Assembly (NCBI RefSeq): GCF_963921235.1
Contig: NC_086097.1
Location: 42,100,001-42,164,000, forward strand
Reading direction: 5' to 3'
Length of the DNA stretch: 64,000 nt
From: Mobula hypostoma
Lineage: Eukaryota
The position numbers and the translations under genes were made by a program. Under the pieces are notes generated by a model. It saw only the letters and a program-made list of their open reading frames with translations, searched no databases and was not told where the DNA came from. Each line of letters starts with the position of its first letter. Position 1 is the first letter of the stretch. This document shows, piece after piece, positions 6,927 through 18,258 of the stretch.

Positions 6927-7697
6927 CAAGTCCAAGTTCAAATTTATTGTCATCTGACTGGACATATACACAATCAAACAAAACAACATTCCTCTAGATC
7001 ACTCTGCACCCACACTACATACATCAAGCACAGCACATAAACCAAAATATTATACTATAAATAAGTTAACAAAATATAATTAAAATGCATGTAGTAAAGT
7101 GCAACGTAGGTAAACAGTGAACAGCTCGCTATCCTAGAAACGAGACTTCATTGGTACAAGGTATTTATTAGGCTCAGAACCTGAGGAAAGAAGCTGTTAC
7201 CCAGTCTGGTCCAAGTCCTGGTGCTTCTGTACCACTTTCTTGATGGTAGAGGGCCAAAGAGATGGTAGGATGGGTGGTAGGCTTCCTCAAAAATGCTTTG
7301 CGCCCTTCGTCTGCAACGCTCTCAGTAAATGTCAGAAATAGGGGAAAGGGAGATGCCGATAATTCTTTCAGTGGTTTTAACTATCCTCTGTAGGGTCTTG
7401 CGGTCCAACGCCTTGCAGCTTCTGTACCACCAAATGATGCAGCCACACAGGAGGCTGTTGATGGTGCTCCTGTAAAACGTTGTTAGAATGGGGGCAGGGA
7501 ACCTTACATGCCCCAATTTCCTCAGAGCGTGGAGACGTTGCTGTGCCTTCTTGGTTAGTAAGGAGGGGTTGTGGGTCCAGGTTAGGTTGTCCATTATGTG
7601 CACGTCAAGGAGCTTTGCACTCTTCACTCTCTCTTCAGCAGATGTGCAATGGAGAGTGCTTGACCTGTGCCTTCCTGAAGTCCACAATCATCTCTCA
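6927..7697 (-). mobile_element. Rex1 LINE 3' fragment
   Basis: ORF 7322-7687 (NLTW..KKAQQRLH..TFYRSTI..LQRIVK); AATAAA and TTGAAC-like tail on the minus strand near 6930. Confidence 0.8.
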
Positions 7698-7789
7698 GAA
7701 CACTGAGAACATGTAAGTAAACAGACTGATAACAGAGTAATCAAAGAAATCTATATCCAACATTGATTGACTGTAGAATTCTGAACCAG

Positions 7790-8022
7790 GAATGGTATTT
7801 AAGCAATCTTGTATATATATTATTTGATTAAGTATTCTTTTTTGTTTAAATAATTCATTACAGGTTTAAATCATTCATTATCTGTTAATTGCATACGTCA
7901 TCATGCTACCACATATATGTTTATGTCTCACTTAAAGTAAACTCAAAATTACACCCACATTTCTTGGAGTTCTGTGTCTTTCTTCAAATTAGATTAATGT
8001 TTTGCAGTTACAAAAAGTAACA
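7790..8022 (+). repeat. 5' LTR of the Gypsy element (extreme 5' end eroded)
   Basis: Colinear with 16953-17200 (CTTGTATATATATTATTTG, CATACGTCA, CTTAAAGTAAACT, AAATTAGATTAATGTTTTG); ends in ACA. Confidence 0.85.
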
Positions 8023-8262
8023 TTGGCAAAGAGGTATTTTTAAAATGAACTTGAGACAGTTACCGACCCATTAAAGCACAGAGAGATGTTGGAGTTCAAA
8101 GAAAAGTACAGCAAAGAACGGTCGAGGGAAAAACAGAACGTACAGAGACGGCCTTCGGAAGGGAAGACATAACCAAGTTTTTTTTAAGTCATAAAACAAA
8201 AGAATTCACAGGTTCATCAAGAGTGAGTACCAGGTGAAAATAATCATTTTAAAAAATCAGAA

Positions 8263-9282
8263 ATGGTTAGCTACATCAGAAGAATTGATGAGTTTGATTT
8301 TACAATGGGTTATTTGCTCATGTATATTGAGTTATTGGAGCAGTACCTTGAAGCAAATGAAGTAGTAAATGAGAAACAAGTACCAATTTTGCAAAGTGCA
8401 TTGGGTTTAAAGGCATACAGTTTGCTTCAAAGTAAAACTGTTCCAACCAAACTTGCAGAAATTAGCTCTGCTGATAGTATTAAAGGAACATTTAGAACTG
8501 AAGCCATTGTAGATTGAAGAAGGCTTCAGGTTTCATAAGCAGAATCAATCAGAACTGGAGTCCAGTTCAGCATATGTGGCTGAATTGAAGAGATTATCTG
8601 AGCATTATCAGCTCAGTAATAGGCTTAATGATGTACTGAGAGATTGTTTAATTTGTGTAACCTTAAAAGAAAGCATTCAAAACTCAATGAATTAATTGAA
8701 ATGGCTGCCTCAATGGAAACAGTAGACAGAGACGCAGTCAGGAATGAAACTGAACCTGAAAAATATTGCAGCGTCGAAACAGAAACCAACCTGGCCGAAC
8801 AAATTGTGTTACCATTGTAGCAGGAGCTCACACATACCAAAGAAAGGTAGCTTTAAAGGTGAAACCTGCATAAGATGCAGCAATGTAGGTCACATACAAA
8901 GAGCACGTCGGGCAGACAAAAGTAAATGGTCTGCACAGGAAAGAGAAAATGCTAAAAAGTCAAGTTCCCGTTTTAAAGAGTACTAATCTGCATACTGTTG
9001 AAGAATCTGATAATGATGAAAGTGACACAGGACTGAGTAGCCTTGAAATCTAAAGTGTGAGAGTGAACAATAGACAAACAATATGGCTTACACCAGAAGC
9101 GAACGGCAAATTAATTAAAATGGAATTAGACACTGGTTCAGTCTTTGCACAAAATGAGTTGAACAGCATTTCAATTTTACCAAACTGAAAGCTGCAGATG
9201 TCCAGTTAAGAATTTACACTGGAGGAAAGATAACTCCTGCAGGAATGACATCGTAACAGTGAAATACGACCAACAAGCCACA
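8263..9282 (+). pseudogene. Gypsy gag (two degenerate CCHC knuckles) and protease, decayed
   Basis: EQYLEANEV..LGLKAYSLL; CYHCSRSSH and CIRCSNVGHIQRAR; protease IKMELDTGS near 9120; continues after the Rex1 insertion as LYVVKTRGKALWGCDQL at 10357. Confidence 0.8.
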
Positions 9283-10355
9283 TCAGAATCAGGTTTACTA
9301 TCACCAGCTTGTGACGTGAAATTTGTTATCTTAGCAGCAGCAGTTCTATGCAATATATAATCCAGCAGAGAAAAAAATAATAATAATCAATAAATAAAAT
9401 AAAAATAATAATAACAATAAATAAACAAGTAAATCAAATACAGTATATGTATATTGAATGGATTTTTTTTAATGTGCAAAAGCAGAATTTCTGTATATTA
9501 AGAAAAAGTGAGGTAGTGTCCAGAGATTCGATGTTGATATAAGAATCGGATGGGAGGGGAAGAAGCAATTCCTGAATCGCTGAGTGTGTGCCCTCAGGCT
9601 TTGGTATCTCCTACCTGATGGTAACAGTGAGAAAAGGGCATGCCCTGGGTGCTGGAGGTCCTTAATAACAATAGCTGCCTTTCTGAGACACCACTCCCTG
9701 AAGATGTCCTGGGTACTTTGTAAGCCAGTACCCAAGATGGAGTTGACCATATTTACAACCTTCTGCAGCTTCTTTCAGTCCTGTGCAGTTGCCCCTGCAT
9801 ACCAGACAGTGATGCAGCCTGTCAGAATGCTCTCCATGGTACGAATGTAGAAGTCTTTGAGTGTATTTGTTGACATGCCAAATCTCTTCAAACTCCTAAT
9901 GAAGTATAGCTGCTGTCTTGCCTTCTTTAAAACTGCATCCATATGTCGGGACCAGGTTAGATACTTAGAGATCTTGACACCCAGGAAGTTGAGACTGCTC
10001 ACTTTCTCCACTTTTGATCCCTCAATGAGGTTTGGTGTGTGTTCCTTCGTCTTACCCTTCCTGAAGTCCACAATTAGCTCTTTGGTCTTACTTCGTTGAG
10101 TCCCAGATTGTTGCTGTGGCACCACTCCACTAGTTGGCATATCCCACTCCTGTACGCCCTCTTGTCACCACCTGAGATTCTACCAACAATAGTAGAATCG
10201 TCAGCAAATTGAAAGACGGCATTTGAGCTTTGTCTAGCTACACAGTCATGTGTACATAGAGAGCAGAGCAGTGGGCTGAGGTGCACCAGTGTTGATTGTC
10301 AGTGAGGAGTATATGTTATCACCAATCCACACAGATTGTGGTCTTCCAGTTAGAA
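9283..10355 (-). mobile_element. Rex1 LINE 3' part inserted in the Gypsy protease
   Basis: FADDSTIVG, KTKELIVDFRK, FLGVKIS, LFSLLPSGRRY; CTGATTCTGAT tail. Confidence 0.9.
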
Positions 10356-10559
10356 AGTGTTGTATGTGGTAAAAACAAGAGGAAAAGCTTTGTGGGGGTG
10401 TGACCAGCTGAGACAACTAAAACTTGATTTGAGATCCATCCACAGTTTGCAAGACATTTTCCCTGCAATGAAGCCAAGTGAAAGCAAATTAAAACATAGA
10501 CTGAATGATGCCACAAATGTCTCCATGCTGTACACCATTGCCCAATAGAGGACAAATAG

Positions 10560-11205
10560 CTGTTGTTGCCAACCTCTGTGCCTCTGGTTGGAAAGCATAT
10601 TGGACCAAGGAAGGACCATGCTGCGCAGAGGAATTCTGAAAGTGACAAAAGCAGTTAGTATAATTATAACAGTTTTTGTAGACAGTATCTCTGAGAAAGC
10701 TGCTGATATGTTAATCAGGCAGCTACTTTGAAATGTGGCTTGGTTTTAAGCTGATAGAGCGTTCAAGGAACTTCAGGAAAGTCACAAGTATTCAGCTTTT
10801 GTGATTATAAAGATCCCGAATCTACCCTGAGTGCATAAAACCCAAGTGGGAGACAAAAAGCTGCTTGAAAAAGTAAATGCTAAGACTAAAGCCGAGCTGG
10901 ATGAATAGAAGGCCAAAGACAAAGGAGTAAATGGAGATACAAAAACAGAGGGTTTATCAGATGATGTTGTAGGTGATGAAACCAAGAGGAGAAATCAGAT
11001 CATAAAGAGAGCAATAAAAGGATGAATAAGGGAATGTTCCATTGCACTAAAGGCACATTCCTGAGATCAAGACGCACAAACTAGAAGAAAAAGGAGGTAA
11101 GAGATGAAGAGGAAGAATGTGAATGTGAAAGAGAAAGGTGAGAGAGAAAGAAGGAATGTTAGAACAAAAAAGATAGTGATCTAAGCAGACCCAGACGGAG
11201 AAAAG
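10560..11205 (+). pseudogene. RBM25: Processed (intronless) RBM25 fragment: RRM domain, following helix and part of the Arg/Glu-rich region; several stops and frameshifts
   Basis: Manual translation across frameshifts: VGKHIGPRKDH..TVFVDSISEKAADMLIRQLL/KCGLVLS**SVQGTSGKSQVFSFCDYKDPESTLSA*/QVGDKKLLEKVNAKTKAELDE*KAK..DETKRRNQIIKRAI. This matches vertebrate RBM25 as recalled (TVFVGNISEKASDMLIRQLLAKCGLVLSWKRVQGASGKLQAFGFCEYKEPESTLRA). Confidence 0.9.
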
Positions 11206-12791
11206 GAGAAGATAGATATTCAGGGCTGTCAGAACCACTCCCTGCCATCTCAGAATCAACTCCTACAACCAGCATAGAGGAGGCCCCAGACCTGAGATTA
11301 TTTCATAACCTCGTCTCACCTGCCAAGAAGAATGATCGCTTTTTGTCAGAAATGACATTATCTCTCAAGATTAAGAAATCCTGTGCAGTAATTAAATCTT
11401 TAGGCTCAATAGGACAATTAAAATTTACCATGCTGTTGATGTCCATATATAGTTGTTGTATAAAATAGTCTCCTGAGTGTGTAGCTGAGATAGACACATA
11501 GAAACATAGAAAACCTACAGCACAATACAGGCCCTTTGGCCCACAAAGCTGTGCCGAACATGTCCCTACCTTAGAAATTACCTAGCGGTATCCATAGCCC
11601 TCTATTTTTCTAAGCTCCATGTATCTATTTAGGAGTCTTTTAAAAGACCCTATCGTATTCACCTCCATCCCCGTCGCCAGCAGCCCATTCCACGCACTCC
11701 ACCACTCTCTGTGTAAAAAATGTACCCCTCACATCTCCTCTGTACCTACTTCCAAGCACCTTAAAACTGTGCCCTCTTGCGTTAGCCATTTCAGCCCTGG
11801 GAAAAAGCTTTGGACTATCCACACAATCAATGCCTTTCATCATCTTATACACCTCTGTCAGGTCACCTCTCATCCTCCATCGCTCCAAGGAGAAAAGGTC
11901 AAGTTCTCTCAACCTATTCTCATAAGGCATGCTCCCCAATCCAGGCAACATCCAAGTAAATCTCCTCTGCACCCTTTATATGGTTTTCAGGTCCTTTCTA
12001 TAGTGAGGTGACCAGAAATGAGCATAGTACACCAAGTGGGGTCTGATCAGGGTCCTCTATAGCTGCAACATTACCTCTCAGCTCCTAAACTCAATTCCAA
12101 AATTGATGAAGGCCAATGCACCATATGCCTTCTTAACCACAGAGTCAACCTGCGCAGTAGCTTTGCGTGTCCTATGGACTCGGACCCCAAGATCCTTCTG
12201 ATCCTCCACACCGCCAAGAATCTTACCATTAATACTATATCCTGTCATCATATTTGACCTACCAAAATGAACCACCTCACACTTATCTGGGTTGAACTCC
12301 ATCTGCCACTTCTCAGCCCAGTTTTGCATCCTATCAATGTCCCGCTGTAACCTCTGACAGCCTTTCACACTGTCCACAACACCTCCAACCTTTGTGTCAT
12401 CAGCAAATTTACTAACCCATCCCTCCACTTCCTCATCAAGGTCATTTATAAAAATCACGAAGAGTAGAGGTCCCAGAACAGATCCCTGAGGCACACCACC
12501 GGTCACCATCCTGCATGTAGAATATGACCCGTCTACAACCGCTCTTTGCCTTCTGTGGTCAAGCCAGTTCTGGATAAACAAAGCAATGTCCCCATGGATC
12601 CCATGACTCCTTACTTTCTCAATAGGCCTTGCATGGGGTACCTTATCAAGTGCCTTGCTAAAATCCATATACACTACATCTACGGCTCTACCTTCCTCAA
12701 TGTGTTTAGTCACATCCTCAAAAAATTCATTCAGGCTCGTTAGGCACAACCTGCCTTTGACAAAGCTATGCTGACTATTCTTAATCATATT

Positions 12792-12958
12792 ATAGAACAT
12801 AGAACAGTGGCCCTTTGACCCACAATGTTGTGCCGACCATGTAACCTACTCTAGAAACTGCCTAGAATTTCCCTAACGAATTCCCCTTTATTTTTCTAAG
12901 CTCCATGTACCTATCTAAGAGACTCTTAAAATATCCTATTGTATATGCTTCCAGCACC
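12792..12958 (-). mobile_element. Short CR1 3' tail inserted into the RT of the host CR1
   Basis: Begins TAGAACATAGAAC (tail repeat), resembles 11497-11680 and interrupts the RT frame. Confidence 0.7.
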
Positions 12959-13868
12959 GGTGCCTCTCCAAATGTTTATAAATCCTGCTTCTCAGGATCT
13001 TCTCCATCAACTTACCAACTACTGAAGTAAGACTCACCGGTCTATAATTTCCTGGGCTATCTCTACTTCCTTTCTTGAATAAGGGACCAACATCTGCAAC
13101 CCCCCAATCCTCCAGAGCATCTCCTGTCCCTATTGATGATGCAAAGATCATTGCCAGAGGCTCAGCAATCTCCTCCCTTGTCTCCCACAGTAGCCGGGGT
13201 ACATCTCGTCCAGTCCCAGTGACTTACCCAACTTGATGCTTTGCAAGTGCTCCAGCACATCTTCTTTCTTAATATCTACATGCTCAAGCTTTCCAGTCCG
13301 CCATATGTCATCCCTACAATTACCAAGATCCTTTTCTGTAGTGAATACTGAAGCAAAGTACTCATTAAATACCTCCGTTATCTCCTCCGGTTCCATACAC
13401 ACTTTTCCACTGTCACACTTGATTAGTCCTATTCTCTCACGTCTTATCCTTTTGCTCTTCACATACTTGTAGAATGTCTTGGGGTTTTCCTTAATCCTGT
13501 CCGCCAAGGCCTTCTCATGGCCCCTTCTGGCTCTCCTAACTTCATTCTTAAGCTCCTTCCTGCTAGCCTTATAATCTCCTATATCTCTAGCATTACCTTG
13601 TTTTTCTGAACCTTTTGTCAGCTCTTCTTTTCTTCTTGACTAGATTTACAACAGCCTTTGTACACCACGGTTCCTGTACCCTACGATCCTTTCCCTGTCT
13701 CATTGGAACGTATCTATGCAGAACCCCATGCAAATATCCCCTGAACGTTTGCCACATTTCTTCTGTACATTTCAATGAAAACATCTGTTTCCAATTTATG
13801 CTTCCAAGTTCCTGCCTGGTGGCCTCATATTTCCAGTTACTCCAATTAAACACTTTCCTAACTTGTCT

Positions 13869-14978
13869 AACATGAACTCTGCTATCAACTCTGCTCTTAA
13901 ACGCATCTCCCCCATTTCACGTACATCTGCTCTCACTCCATCCTCCCGCCACCCCACTAGGAATAGGGTTCCCCTGGTCCTCACCTACCACCCCACCAGC
14001 CTCCGGGTCCAACATATTATTCTCCATAACTTCCGCCACCTCCAACGGGATCCCACCACTAAGCACATCTTTCCCTCCCCCCCCCACTGCATTCCGCAGG
14101 GATCGCTCCCTACACAACTCCCTTGTCCATTCGTACCCCCCATCCCTCCCCACTGATCTCCCTCCTGGCACTTATCCTTGTAAGCGCAACAAGTGCTACA
14201 CATGCCCTTACACTTCCTCCCTTACCACCATTCAGGGCCCCAAACAGTCCTTCCAGGTGAGGCAACACTTCACCTGTGAGTCGACTGGGGTGATATCCTG
14301 CGTCCGGTGCTCCCAATGTGGCCTTTTATATATTGGCGAGACCCGACGCAGACTGGGAGACCGCTTTGCTGAACATCTACGCTCTGTCCGCCAGAGAAAG
14401 CAGGATCTCCCAGTGGCCACACATTTTAATTCCACATCCCATTCCCATTCTGACATGTCTATCCATGGCCTCCTCTACTGTAAAGATGAAGCCACACTCA
14501 GGTTGGAGGAACAACACCTTATATTCCGTCTGGGTAGCCTCCAACTTGATGGCATGAACATCGACTTCTCTAACTTCCGCTAAGGCCCCACCTCCCCCTC
14601 ATACCCCATCTGTTACTTATTTTTATGCACACATTCTTTCTCTCACTCTCCTTTTTCTCCCTCTGTCCCTCTGAATATACCTCTTGCCCATCCTCTGGGT
14701 CCCCCCACCTTCTTGTCTTTCTTCCCGGACCTCCTGTCCCATGATCCTCTCGTATCCCCTTTTGCCTATCACCTGTCCAGCTCTTGGCTCTATCCCTCCC
14801 CCTCCTGTCTTCTCCTATCATTTTGGATCTCCCCCTCCCCCTCCAACTTTCAAATCCCTTACCCACTCTTCCTTCAGTTAGTCCTGACGAAGGGTCTCGG
14901 CCTGAAACGTCGACTGCACCTCTTCCTACAGATGCTGCCTGGCCTGCTGCGTTCACCAGCAATTTTGATGTGTGTTGC
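13869..14978 (+). mobile_element. 5'-truncated Penelope-like element (Neptune type): Cys linker, GIY-YIG and terminal repeat
   Basis: GVISCVRCSQCGLLYIGETRRRLGDRFAEH; perfect 13-bp TSD TCCTAACTTGTCT at 13856-13868 and 14979-14991; nearly identical to 55001-56100. Confidence 0.93.
14875..14916 (+). ncRNA. Minimal type I hammerhead ribozyme motif in the Penelope terminus
   Basis: TAGTC-CTGACGA-AGGGTCTCGGCCT-GAAAC-GTC^GACTG: CUGANGA and GAAA boxes, helix I TAGTC/GACTG, GUC triplet, palindromic ACGT in place of helix III. Confidence 0.8.
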
Positions 14979-16952
14979 TCCTAACTTGTCTGTTCCTATC
15001 CCTCTCCAAAGCTATGGTAAAGGATCACTATCTCCAAAATGCTCTCCCACTGAGAGATCTGACACCTGACCAGGTTCATTTCCTAATACCAGATCAAGTA
15101 CAGCCTCTCCTCTTGTAGGCTTATCTACATATTGTGTCAAGAAACCTTCCTGAACACACCTAATAAACTCCACGCCATCTAAATCCCTCCCTCTAGGGAC
15201 ATGCCATTCGATATTTGGGAAATTAAAATCTCCCACCACGACAACTCTGTTATTATTACACCTTTCCAGAATCTGTCTCCCTATCTGCTCCTCAATGTCC
15301 CTGTTACTATTGGGTGGTCTATAAAAAAAAACCCAGAAGAGTATTTGATCCCTTCCTGTTCCTAACTTCCAACCACAGAATCTCTGTAGACAATCCCTCC
15401 ACGACTTTCTCTTTTGCTGCAGCCGTGACACTGTCTCCAATCAACAGTACCATGCCCTTACCTCTTTTGCTTGCCTCCCTCCGTGTCCTTTCTGAAACAT
15501 CTAAAGCCTGGCACTCGAAAGAACCATTCCTGCCCCTGATCCATCCAAGTCTCTGTAATCACCACAACATCATAGCTCCAAGTATTGATCCACACTCTAA
15601 GATCATCCGCTTTGTTCATAATACCCCTTGCATTAAAATAGACACATCTCAGACCATCGGTCTGAGCATATCCCTTCTCTATCACCTGCCTATCCTCCCT
15701 CTCGCACTGTCTCCAAGCTTTCTCTATTTGTGAGGCAACCACCCCTTCCTCTGTCTCTTTAGTTTGGTTCCCACCCACCAGCAATTCTAAGTTAAACTCT
15801 CCCCAGTAACCTTAACAAACCTCCCCACAAGGATATCAATCCCCCGGGATTCAAGTGCAACCCATCCTTTGTGTACAGGTCACACCTGCCCCAAAAGAGG
15901 TCCCAATGATCCAGAGATCTAAATCCCTGCCCCCTGCTCCAATCCCTCAGCCACACATTTATCCTCCACCTCATTTTATTCCTATACTCATTGTCATGTG
16001 GCACAGGCAGTAATCCCAAGATTACTACCTTTGTGGTCCTGCTTCTCAGCTTCCTTCCTAACTCCCTGTAGTCTGCTTTCAGGACCTCCTCTCTTTTCCT
16101 ACCTATGTTGTCGGTACTAATATGTACCACAACCTCTGGCTGTTCACCTTCCCACTTCAGGATAGCGTGGACGTGATCAGAAACATCCCGGACCCTGGCA
16201 CCAGGGAGGCAAACTACCATCCGTGTTTCATTCCTTCATCCACAGAATTGCCTGTGTGATCCCCCCAAACTATAGAGTCCCCTGTCACTGCTGCCATCCT
16301 CTTCCTTTCCCTACCCTTCTGAACCACAGGGCCAGACTCTGTGCCAGAGGCATGGCCACTGTTGCTTCCCCCAGTGGGCAGCCACAGGGGTACTCTCTAG
16401 CCTCTGACTCCTGCCCTTCCCTCTCCTGACTGTTATCCACTTACGTATCTGTTTCACGAGGACTCAGTGTGACTACCTGCCTATAGCTCCTCTCTATCAC
16501 CTCCTCACTCTCCCTGACCAGATGAAGGTCATCGAGCTGCATCTTCAGTTCCCTAACGTGGTCCCTAAGGAGCTGCAGCTCGACGCACCTGGTGCAGATA
16601 TGGAGGTCCAGGAGTCTGGGAGTCTCCAGGACTTCCCACATCTGATATCGAGCACAGAACACCAGCCTCACACACATACTTCCTGTCTGTATTCTACACA
16701 GGCAACCTACCTCACCTCGACGTATTATCGCTGAAGCCCCTTTGAGCCAAAGCCTTCCTACTCTGTCTCCCTCTACTCTGTTGCCCACTCTGTAAAGCTG
16801 TCTCCTTTTAAACTCTTCTCACTGTTCTACTGGCTGAAGTCCACACGCTTGTGCAGTTGTGCCCCGATCAAACCGCTGAAGAAATAACTGTCCTCTTTTA
16901 AATAGAGATGTATTCTCTATCAAGTCGAAGTTTATAGCTAAGTAGGATGGAG

Positions 16953-17200
16953 TGTTGTGTATTTAATATTACAATAATATTTGAGTAAACTTGTATATAT
17001 ATTATTTGCTTAAGCATTCTTGTTTGTTTAAGTAATTCATTACGGGTTCTAAGTAAAATACTTGAACTCCATACGTCATTATGCTACCAGGTGTAAGTTC
17101 ACATCTTGCTTAAAGTAAACTTGAAGATACACCCACGTTTCTTGGACTCTCACGTCTTCCTTTAAATTAGATTAATGTTTTGAAGTTACAAAACAGAACA
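16953..17200 (+). repeat. 3' LTR of the Gypsy element
   Basis: TGTTG...AACA termini, preceded by a purine tract; homologous to 7790-8022. Confidence 0.88.
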
Positions 17201-18258
17201 ATAACCATTGTCTGGAAGCAGTCCAGCATATGAGGAAGAACAATACTCCAATGCCACATACTCTCAACTTCACTAAGTGGCAGTAATGAATTAGGAAATT
17301 AGTTCGGCTTTATTAAAACTAAAGGTCTCACAGGCCTTCTAAATTGAAAGCAATAAGACTCTGGCCATTTAGTTGCAGTGAAATAAGAAACCACGGATCC
17401 TCTCTAAGGTATCTCCAATTGGATCGAGGCCCGCAGAGGCAGGAAGAGGAGCTACTATTATTATAGTAATGAAAGAGAACTCTAGGTCTGGCTTGAAACA
17501 GGGAAATAATTTGTGACAGGCTTGGTTATGGGACCCTCATGAAAAATCAGGTTCCTTTTATGAACTGTCAGGAGCATCCCCATTCCAAGTAAGCTTCTGA
17601 TGTGTATGCTTACTTCCCCTGTTCTTACCCTAATGTTCAGTGCCACTAACAAGGATGCTACATACTTGGTGAAGTATCAAATGAAGGTGGAAGCAGATAG
17701 TCCATTCGCAGTGCATTGGGGTAAACTGGATAAATTAGGATAAACTGGATGAGGCATTGTACTGGACTGTCAATATGGTACCATCTCTTTGAAGGATAAC
17801 AGAAGGAAAAGGAGGGAGATGGAATCTAGAAACAAGATTTATCTTCTTTACAAATCCAGTTACAAGAACCAGTAATCACCTGAATCTGGGGCTCAGCGAA
17901 AGGAAGCCTTAAGAGATATCAAATATGATCACTTTGTTCCCTGATAGGTTGTAAACAGTACAAGATGTGAGATTAAGTACATCTTTCACCCGTTGTCACT
18001 AGTGTGATTCTAAGTGCAAATTCAGCAAAGCAGCCATTATCGACCAAAATGGCAAAATTAAGATCATCAACCAATCAATCTTGCTCCAATCACTATATTA
18101 TTACAAGAAGACCCTGGATAGAGTTACAAATAAGAGGAAATCTCCAGCATTTTGCATGTGTGTTGCCTGGATAGGGTTAGCCTCCTCAGCATGAAAATGC
18201 ATTTCAGCAATGCAAGCACTACCTCAAGGAAGCTTCTGATGTGTATGCTTACTTCCCC

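Follow-up and report, generated by a model that had tools for sequence, protein, structure and literature searches.

The window (the whole 64,000-nucleotide stretch of DNA analysed here) contains at 7771-17201 a degraded Ty3/Gypsy LTR retrotransposon with two nested insertions (Table 1). Its direct LTRs have TG..CA ends, and other copies carry the same LTR; a polypurine tract (PPT), at about 16940-16952, immediately precedes the 3' LTR. As far as window position 10521, the gag and protease regions run colinear with the Gypsy polyprotein P0127 (residues 1-419). In tblastn searches with Gypsy polyproteins, residues 1-350 of P0127 and P0128 run colinear with 8263-9247 (42-54% identity), and the gag of a sister copy, L038, matches P0127 with E 4.8e-78. 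Pfam assigned 0 families to P0001 and three decayed open reading frames (ORFs) of the window, with gag matches below threshold only.

Table 1. Features of the Gypsy-RBM25 element in the window
Feature	Position	Strand	Remarks
5' LTR (TGT...ACA)	7771-8033	+	79.6% identity over 221 nt to 16978-17193; alignable with the 3' LTRs of other copies
gag (CCHC knuckle near 8800-8905) and first part of protease	8263-9283	+	decayed: stops, frameshifts
Private nested LINE-type fragment within the protease region	9284-10359	-	outside the family; bridged in other copies
Protease end and linker, last Gypsy-derived codons (...NDATN-V)	10360-10518	+	P0127 residues 366-419 aligned with 10360-10521
RBM25 48-nt alternative (cassette) exon	10519-10559	+	host C1:99832633-99832586; 7-nt deletion in the window copy
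RBM25 exon 3	10560-10730	+	block against host exon
RBM25 exon 4	10731-10788	+	block against host exon
RBM25 exon 5	10789-10935	+	block against host exon
RBM25 exon 6	10936-~11100	+	block against host exon
RE/RD-rich remnant (exon 8 pieces and exon 9 start)	11089-11212	+	alignment to host exons
RBM25 exon 8, internal piece	11089-11179	+	alignment to host
RBM25 exon 8, last 15 nt	11180-11194	+	alignment to host
RBM25 exon 9 start, first ~15-18 nt	11195-~11212	+	11198-11212 100% identical to exon 9
3' fusion zone: purine-rich stretch that the Gypsy coding region for the integrase C-terminus has in common with RBM25 exon 9	11199-11212	+	
Gypsy pol C-terminal tail (last ~66 codons, past the integrase core)	11205-11405	+	73.5% identity to autonomous a49 1927-2129
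3' untranslated internal region, first part	11406-11488	+	family homology up to 11488-11491
Nested 5.4-kb insertion(s) of other retroelements	11489-16905		outside the family; family homology back at 16906
End of internal region and polypurine tract aagtaggatggag	16906-16952	+	alignable with the sequence preceding the LTR in other copies
3' LTR	16953-17201	+	79.6% identity to the 5' LTR

The original prediction had Gypsy coding sequence running through the protease. Gag and protease are indeed colinear with P0127, but the LINE-type fragment interrupts them; in other copies, the positions equivalent to 9283 and 10360 are joined directly, with no LINE fragment between. The purine tract and LTR were also misplaced, near 11403: the internal region is cut at 11488 and resumes at 16906, with the 3' LTR 5.4 kb farther along the window. 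An ORF within the 5.4-kb insertion (12078-12845, minus strand) encodes RVT_1 (E 5.7e-23). Two copies were read for TSDs: the LTR flanks of the window copy, ttgac and ataac, are identical at 3 of 5 positions and form no clean TSD; L038 has a 5-bp TSD (CCCAC/CCCAC), consistent with integration as a whole element. A third copy, L037, showed no matching flanks at first sight.

The pol order of this lineage is PR-RT-RNase H-IN, as given by the P0127 domains: gag-asp_proteas, residues 297-383; RVT_1, 504-645; RT_RNaseH, 708-839; Integrase_H2C2, 950-1003; and rve, 1037-1110. The chimeric element is without residues ~420-1252, which comprise RVT_1, RNase H, the IN zinc finger, and rve; as predicted, RBM25 sequence stands in their place. 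The return of Gypsy sequence near 11205, likewise anticipated, is seen in alignment with the autonomous copy a49, in which the 'HIDQLK' integrase motif immediately precedes the matching segment. A pol-end motif (EKRYPTRIRKPP-like) can be recognized in this tail.

By alignment, the segment from 10519 to ~11212 is an intron-less piece of host RBM25, in sense orientation, replacing RT, RNase H, and the integrase core. The translation of 10822-11163 (with X at stops) matches P0003, 'RNA-binding protein 25-like [Heptranchias perlo]', with E 2.5e-27 and 71% identity; a search with P0003 itself retrieves 431 proteins at E<=1e-10, the best 120 of which bear the name RBM25 almost without exception. The host gene, located with the C-terminus of gar RBM25 as query, lies on the same contig as the window (G000:C1, ~99791418-99840648, minus strand). 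A genome search with PWI (PF01480) gave no RBM25 among its matches, which we take to be SRRM1 and PRPF3. The LINE-type fragment at 9284-10359 resembles repeats scattered across the RBM25 region, and LINE reverse-transcriptase fragments are abundant around and inside the window element.

Against the host gene, the window aligns as separate exon blocks (77-87% identity; best E 3e-53), and against the spliced host exons it is 80.7% identical over 620 nt. Exons 3-6, which have AG/GT borders in the host, are joined without introns and encode the pre-RRM segment, the RRM, and the helical region. Exon 7 and parts of exon 8 have gone from the window copy through internal deletions: exon 7 is retained in copies L012, L016, and L018, and L012 has exon 8 to its last base. 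Five introns are absent from the window copy and seven from the fullest copies. The captured mRNA fragment comprises the 48-nt cassette exon, exons 3-8, and the first ~30 nt of exon 9. At its borders there is no poly(A) or A-run and no duplication, and it ends in exon 9, far from the mRNA 3' end. The central claims of the original prediction are borne out: an RBM25 mRNA fragment inside a Gypsy element; on the element's strand; crossing exon-exon junctions; and lacking introns, poly(A), and TSD. (A match of a window fragment to Ara h 8 among PDB sequences, E 0.054, is due to chance. A circular-RNA origin was also weighed and set aside, since the piece stops within exon 9 and not at a donor site.)

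The window element is one copy of a dispersed non-autonomous family. A first search gave 44 matches from 40 scored of 3895 candidates; a wider one gave 151 matches from 150 scored of 5555, and every one of the 150 scored candidates matched, in keeping with the amplified family that had been proposed. Scattered over many contigs, the copies show pairwise differences of about 17% and apparently number in the thousands, at roughly 3 kb each. The suggested search of the genome for further junctions also succeeded: the chimeric junction has 14 exact-pattern matches, versus 0 in the control. A pattern of equal length for a direct join of protease tail and integrase tail has 0. All 22 chimeric locus rows have identical exon blocks. 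Autonomous copies exist as well, with 72-79% nucleotide identity in gag-PR.

A consensus-free count of differences by codon position shows the decay of the family. Alleles private to one copy are spread evenly over the three positions (133/156/149), and the 26 differences common to at least 60% of the copies fall 3/2/21; no sign of selection on the RBM25 cargo was seen. A search of representative proteins with the ORF across the 5' junction returned 71 matches, made up of ordinary Gypsy PR-RT proteins and RBM25 fragments. Four junction-overlapping matches were read (P0198, P0186, P0158, and P0145); none of these is a chimera, and this search gave no evidence for the family in other organisms.

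The 3' junction lies within exon 9, about 30 nt from the exon start, in low-complexity purine-rich sequence. The host exon reads ...GGAGAAGAAAAGG..., the autonomous copy a49 ...GGAGAAGAAAGATGTCC..., and the chimeras ...GGAGAAGAAAGGTGTCC...; about 10 nt are shared in 18 of the 19 aligned copies. The Gypsy side was read from a49 and the variant L015 only, a49 being the one of three autonomous 3' regions in which the pol end is present. (This copy also carries an inserted young 170-nt repeat.) Microhomology of this length is consistent with a template switch.

The 5' junction has a different character. Gypsy sequence was predicted to extend to 10553, including an early RT-like motif, 'PLP/IED'. 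It ends instead at 10518-10521 (nucleotide homology to the autonomous copies L043, L044, and L049 stops at 10515), and the supposed motif comes from reading the RBM25 cassette exon in two frames. Fusion is exactly at the first base of this exon, 10519, in frame with gag-PR: of the 22 chimeric sequences aligned, in which L002 and L010 represent one locus, 18 pass from Gypsy ...GATGATGCCACAACT to GTCTCCATG, the first base of the host exon. In the window, ORF 10354-10548 carries the reading frame through the junction, and the frame is likewise unbroken in at least 9 of the 22. In the host gene, ccttttcag (a polypyrimidine tract ending in AG) lies directly upstream of the exon and GTAAC downstream. 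This acceptor is in use: contigs from four of four runs (one study, the RNA nature of which is a guess) join it to the upstream exon with GT..AG intron ends, and the proteins P0004 and P0005 also include the exon. On the Gypsy side, all three autonomous relatives have GT at the exact fusion point (...GCCACAGCA|GTGTTC). An acceptor in use, joined to a Gypsy break at GT, gives the fusion the look of a splice junction, from a transcript reading through from Gypsy into RBM25.

Two points weigh on this reading. The putative donor, GCA|GTGTTC, is presumably a poor match to the splice-donor consensus, which counts against splicing. Moreover, today's RBM25 gene has no Gypsy remnant between the upstream exons and the cassette exon; this weighs little, because an unfixed or long-decayed insertion would leave none.

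The chimera probably arose, then, as a spliced Gypsy-RBM25 read-through RNA that gained its 3' end by a template switch with a helper and was then amplified in trans. We infer a progenitor insertion, in which an autonomous Gypsy element came to lie in sense orientation upstream of the cassette exon, probably within an RBM25 intron. LTR-driven transcription would have continued into RBM25; splicing would have linked a cryptic donor at the protease/RT boundary with the acceptor of the cassette exon, and removed the RBM25 introns farther downstream in the normal way. The resulting RNA, with part of the 5' LTR and gag, would have been co-packaged with helper RNA. During minus-strand synthesis, reverse transcriptase may have switched at GGAGAAGAAA from the integrase C-terminal region of the helper to RBM25 exon 9, whereby the PPT and 3' LTR would be regained. 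The predicted product is an in-frame Gag-PR-RBM25 fusion without pol, which autonomous relatives could have multiplied in trans to apparently thousands of copies, in one old burst.

The original prediction invoked a template switch onto a co-packaged mRNA, and suggested a comparison with autonomous Gypsy sequence for microhomology. The ~10 nt at the 3' junction agree with such a switch; at the 5' junction, just GT is shared, and its position, to the base, on the acceptor and on the autonomous GT points to a spliced Gypsy-RBM25 read-through RNA as the RNA that was co-packaged. In a version with two microsimilarity-guided switches, as in the LTR-mediated retroposition of Tan et al. (2016), the co-packaged RNA would be plain RBM25 mRNA: reverse transcriptase would leave the Gypsy RNA in the integrase tail, copy RBM25 mRNA, and re-enter at the GT of the PR/RT boundary. 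The architecture of LTR-mediated retrocopies, as described in the accessible part of that article (PMC5131818), is the one found here: an ORF replaced, no poly(A) or TSD, and microsimilarity. The microhomology at the 3' junction and the GT common to both sides at the 5' junction also fit. Because the cassette exon itself starts with GT, a 2-nt switch would yield the identical sequence, and at that junction the sequence appears to offer only one argument against such a switch, the coincidence with the exon border. Such a switch would have needed to land by chance on the very first nucleotide of an internal exon with an acceptor in use in vivo; a rough estimate puts the chance of any exon start within 2 nt at about 1-2%. 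Furthermore, 2 nt is short against the median microsimilarity of 6 bp that the same part of the article gives for such retrocopies (PMC5131818). Two switches are on balance an unlikely origin, though one deserving serious consideration.

A processed RBM25 pseudogene made by a LINE and later inserted into a pol-less Gypsy element, or a rearrangement or gene conversion at the DNA level, is very improbable. LINE reverse-transcriptase fragments are plentiful at the locus, but the RBM25 piece has neither poly(A) nor TSD and stops inside exon 9; the copies examined share the same two borders (18 of 22 at the 5' side, 18 of 19 at the 3' side); the direct join expected of pol-less relatives was matched 0 times against 14 for the chimera; and the 5' border coincides with a splice site. 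The reverse direction, in which the host's 48-nt exon is an exonized transposon fragment and the junction no host splice site, is the least credible of all: the exon is absent from 13 of the 13 bony-fish and tetrapod RBM25 proteins checkable by pattern, and may be lineage-restricted, but host sequence upstream is unlike the Gypsy protease tail and downstream unlike the element, the exon keeps the RBM25 frame and also occurs in a gene model from another species and in a transcript-like contig, and in the element it leads directly into exon 3.

Capture of a spliced read-through RNA, the preferred reading, has its closest parallel in retroviral oncogene capture, alongside which Swain and Coffin, in 1992, are reportedly named. 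Two features of capture by splicing are present: a GT of the element joined to a host exon precisely at its 3' splice site; and a 3' junction at a microhomology inside host exon 9. Acute transforming retroviruses, according to the available portion of one account, acquire oncogenes by read-through and splicing at the 5' side and recombination at the 3' side, giving a helper-dependent product (PMC4276931). The likeness to that account extends to an element in sense orientation upstream of host exons and a chimeric spliced transcript (both inferred here); loss of replicative genes with presumed dependence on a helper; and cargo in frame with Gag. The viruses it describes are infectious retroviruses, whereas the RBM25 chimera is a germ-line Ty3/Gypsy retrotransposon of a fish; it carries the N-terminal third of a splicing factor, with no sign of selection on this cargo, and became a high-copy repeat. 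Oncogene capture matches the data better than a double template switch.

The chimeras of Tan et al. (2016), whose two junctions are both ascribed to microsimilarity switches, are alike in several respects, so far as the accessible text describes them (PMC5131818): within an LTR element, an intron-less piece of host mRNA takes the place of some of the internal ORF; the parts on both LTR sides are kept; the piece lacks poly(A) and TSD; a fusion point shows microsimilarity; and the coding sequence is in sense orientation and in frame, in elements that can act as non-autonomous ones. Measured against the same text, the RBM25 family differs in having its 5' junction on a splice acceptor, and in being old and apparently thousands of copies strong; the species set given there is without cartilaginous fish. 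Maize Bs1, rice LTR retrotransposons, and human HERV-K/FAM8A1 are further LTR elements with pieces of cellular genes (as cited in the portion of PMC5131818 available). Their hosts are plants or primates and their copy numbers low, and the RBM25 family is likened to them by description only. Literature on LTR retrotransposons, shark Gypsy gene capture, and captured host genes yielded no report of RBM25 capture.

Could the cargo have been a working part? It includes the RRM and the RE/RD-rich region, without the PWI domain. An in-frame Gag-protease-RBM25 fusion might have been of advantage to the element without pol, for instance if it bound the element's RNA or directed its routing, or if it interfered with splicing or silencing in the host. 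This idea we regard as decidedly doubtful. If true, it would explain why one chimera apparently reached thousands of copies, and would make this a retrotransposon that recruited a domain of a host splicing factor as a functional component.

Capture of host genes by LTR elements is already known as a phenomenon. To our knowledge, however, few captures still allow a comparison of both junctions with the living host gene. Here one genome contains the donor gene with its exon borders as well as autonomous relatives of the element, so that each step of the pathway leaves a checkable trace. The results suggest that the read-through-and-splice route of retroviral oncogene capture also operated in a Ty3/Gypsy element of a cartilaginous-fish-like genome, and that a defective chimera turned into a major repeat of apparently thousands of copies. 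For annotation, RBM25-like RRM fragments that occur by the thousands in such genomes are transposon cargo, not genes.

Read in three frames, window 8000-13000 passes from decayed gag and protease sequence (CCHC knuckle in gag) into RBM25-like sequence, and then into a short tail. Alignment with seven sister loci, together with an LTR search, places the window copy at 7771-17201; the element is ~2.9 kb long once both nested insertions are subtracted. The gag of a compact sister copy matches Gypsy gag-pol polyproteins (P0127, E 4.8e-78; P0128, "K02A2.6-like"), and P0127 has the domain order protease, RVT_1, RNase H, integrase. Residues 1-419 of P0127 are colinear with the window up to base 10521. 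The pol end is kept at 11205-11405, colinear from about residue 1253 as judged via a49, an autonomous copy from the same genome. The window element lacks reverse transcriptase, RNase H, and the integrase zinc finger and core. No clean target-site duplication was seen around its LTRs; a 5-bp duplication, CCCAC, flanks those of one compact copy, as expected if integrase inserted the whole chimera.

Features of the window element and of host RBM25
Feature	Position	Remarks
5' LTR	7771-8033	from LTR search
3' LTR	16953-17201	79.6% identity to 5' LTR over 221 nt
Nested insertion 1	9284-10359	private to window copy
Nested insertion 2	11489-16905	private to window copy
RBM25 48-nt exon	99832633-99832586	host minus strand
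RBM25 exon 3		171 nt
RBM25 exon 4		58 nt
RBM25 exon 5		161 nt
RBM25 exon 6		177 nt
Cargo end in window		piece of exon 8, last 15 nt of exon 8, exon 9 start

The 5.4-kb nested insertion contains a reverse-transcriptase ORF (within 12078-13916, minus strand; RVT_1, E 5.7e-23) and, at 13876-14583 on the plus strand, a 235-aa ORF in which a cysteine-rich stretch precedes "...LLYIGETRRRLGDRFAEH...". The latter had no match in a Pfam search; it resembles the GIY-YIG nuclease of Penelope-like elements. The nested LINE fragment at 9284-10359 carries an ORF (9775-10164, minus strand) that matches Pfam ALKBH8_N (E 2.8e-7), an odd label: the ORF looks like the C-terminal part of LINE ORF2. A repeat opening "atagaaacatagaa..." occurs at 11499-11600 and again at 12795-12900. 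It matches RBM25-locus introns at 92-93% identity, so its age must be far below that of the Gypsy family; it is probably a SINE or LINE tail, from an abundant family.

The cargo is RBM25, as the original prediction held: window 10822-11163 (with X at stops) matches a shark "RNA-binding protein 25-like" protein, P0003 (E 2.5e-27). P0003 contains an RRM_1 domain (Pfam) and, as query, finds 431 proteins at E<=1e-10; of the 120 best, almost all carry the name RBM25. Host RBM25, located with the gar RBM25 C-terminus, lies on the element's own contig (minus strand, ~99791418-99840648). Against this gene, the cargo falls into separate blocks whose host borders are canonical AG/GT, so the predicted crossing of exon-exon junctions is borne out. 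Block borders are identical in 22/22 chimeric locus rows examined; three (L012, L016, and L018) retain the 84-nt exon 7, and L012 retains exon 8 through its last base. Together, these common borders and retained exons indicate an original cargo that began with the 48-nt exon and ended ~30 nt inside exon 9; the fullest form lacks seven introns. Deletions in purine-rich repeats have taken exon 7 and some of exon 8 from the majority form, window copy included.

P0003 and P0004 (220 aa and 216 aa), public "RBM25-like" gene models from another shark, begin in the 48-nt cassette exon. They are truncated versions of the true RBM25 gene and not transposon copies, because, in this genome, their exons correspond one to one with those of the RBM25 locus, which contains introns. 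Host RBM25 also has a ~30-nt micro-exon (L028 ~7476-7505; G000:C1:99837476-99837505) between exon 99838439-99838487 and the cassette exon, seen only as joints in contigs of four runs.

The 5' junction was examined by three-way alignment of the host, 22 chimeric sequences, and three autonomous relatives (72-79% nucleotide identity in gag-protease). With a slash marking each border, autonomous Gypsy reads ...GATGATGCCACAGCA/GTGTTCAAGG; the chimera, ...GATGATGCCACAACT/GTCTCCATGCTG...AAACAG/GTGTTGGTGCC; and host RBM25, ...ccttttcag/GTCTCCATGCTG...AAACAG/gtaacc. Thus, the cargo starts with base 1 of an internal exon that has an acceptor and a donor of its own; the break on the Gypsy side is at a GT. 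The cassette exon is real: in protein P0005 it is in frame, flanked by upstream sequence and exon 3; P0003 and P0004 include it; and in contigs from four runs of one study (run kind presumed) its acceptor is joined to a small upstream exon with GT..AG ends, a form unlike anything in the transposon copies. Loose ends of these contigs represent forms with and without the exon. The "PLP/IED" stretch, previously taken as an early RT-like motif, is this exon. In the window, ORF 10354-10548 carries the gag-protease frame on into that of RBM25, and at least nine of the 22 copies have the same continuity.

At the 3' junction, the copies pass from the end of exon 8 into the start of exon 9 (AGAGAAAAG...GGAGAAGAAA), and then turn to Gypsy sequence (GGTGTCCAGAGCTGTCAGAACC), where the autonomous copy has ...GTTGGAGAAGAAAGATGTCCAGAGCTGTCAGAACC. 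The two parents have about 10 nt in common here, the Gypsy side being based on two sequences. The junction is the same in 18 of 19 aligned copies. In the exception, L015 (G000:C67:49968638-49972204, minus), exons 7-9 are absent and exon 6 runs directly into integrase sequence ~55 codons upstream of the break that the others have; L015 probably is a later recombinant of the chimera with a helper element. Copy a49 (L053, G000:C2:31260300-31262500), used for this junction, contains a young insertion at positions ~1345-1821, the first 170 nt of which have 96-98% identical copies in at least 39 other places.

In sequence, a splice-site 5' border combined with a microhomology 3' border matches the route of retroviral oncogene capture, outlined in PMC4276931 as read-through and splicing, recombination, and then a helper-dependent product. 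Accordingly framed, a read-through Gypsy-RBM25 transcript would have been spliced at the 5' side, recombination at microhomology would have made the 3' junction, and the resulting chimera would be helper-dependent. The putative Gypsy splice donor is poor, and no progenitor insertion is left in the host RBM25 intron. Moreover, the 48-nt exon begins with GT, so sequence alone does not separate splicing from template switching. Template switching at both ends onto co-packaged RBM25 mRNA, as originally proposed and as in the two-switch model of LTR-mediated retroposition (PMC5131818), agrees with the microhomology at the 3' end, but requires at the 5' end a coincidence estimated at 1-2%.

The exact 5'-junction pattern occurs 14 times (reversed control, 0), and these hits, with block borders common to all 22 rows, confirm the expected chimeric family. 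An exact pattern of equal length, joining protease tail directly to integrase tail, has 0 occurrences in the genome; hence no sister element was seen that shares the deletion but lacks RBM25. These counts, and a 5' border on a host exon start, contradict both a LINE retrocopy and a DNA rearrangement. Derivation of the 48-nt exon from a transposon is contradicted by its host flanks, which hold no Gypsy remnant. Our literature search found no published account of RBM25 capture by a Gypsy or LTR element.

Capture, probably by splicing and recombination, was followed by spread. An 874-nt query with both junctions gave 3895 candidates over many contigs at first look, and 44 matches from 40 scored candidates (72-100% identity; full-length ones, 75-81%). 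With P0003 as query, 150 of 5555 candidates were scored and yielded 151 matches, all colinear at E<=1.6e-64. A representative-protein search with the ORF spanning the 5' junction (71 hits) found no chimeric protein elsewhere, judged from four hits that overlap the junction. One copy (L037/L009; G000:C96:22419300-22427300) carries the cargo in tandem, ~575 nt twice, 83.8% identical. This copy and L002, ~1.2 Mb apart on one contig, have almost equal ORFs across the junction, and are probably the pair with the smallest distance among the copies compared, 0.025; their likeness suggests duplication at the DNA level.

Over 615 nt (cassette exon to exon 6), the mean distance is 0.170 between pairs of the 22 copies and 0.129 between copies and host. 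By codon position (1/2/3), alleles number 133/156/149 in one copy, 53/43/59 in two copies, and 41/32/31 in three copies up to 60%. This even spread shows neutral decay; selection on the cargo during spread was not seen. Differences present in 60% of copies or more number 26 (3/2/21 by codon position; 20 synonymous) and are best explained by changes that the living RBM25 gene underwent after capture. Half of the pairwise distance (0.085), half of the window LTR-pair divergence (~0.10), and host third-position divergence (~0.10) agree, which indicates that capture, burst, and window insertion are all old and about equally so.
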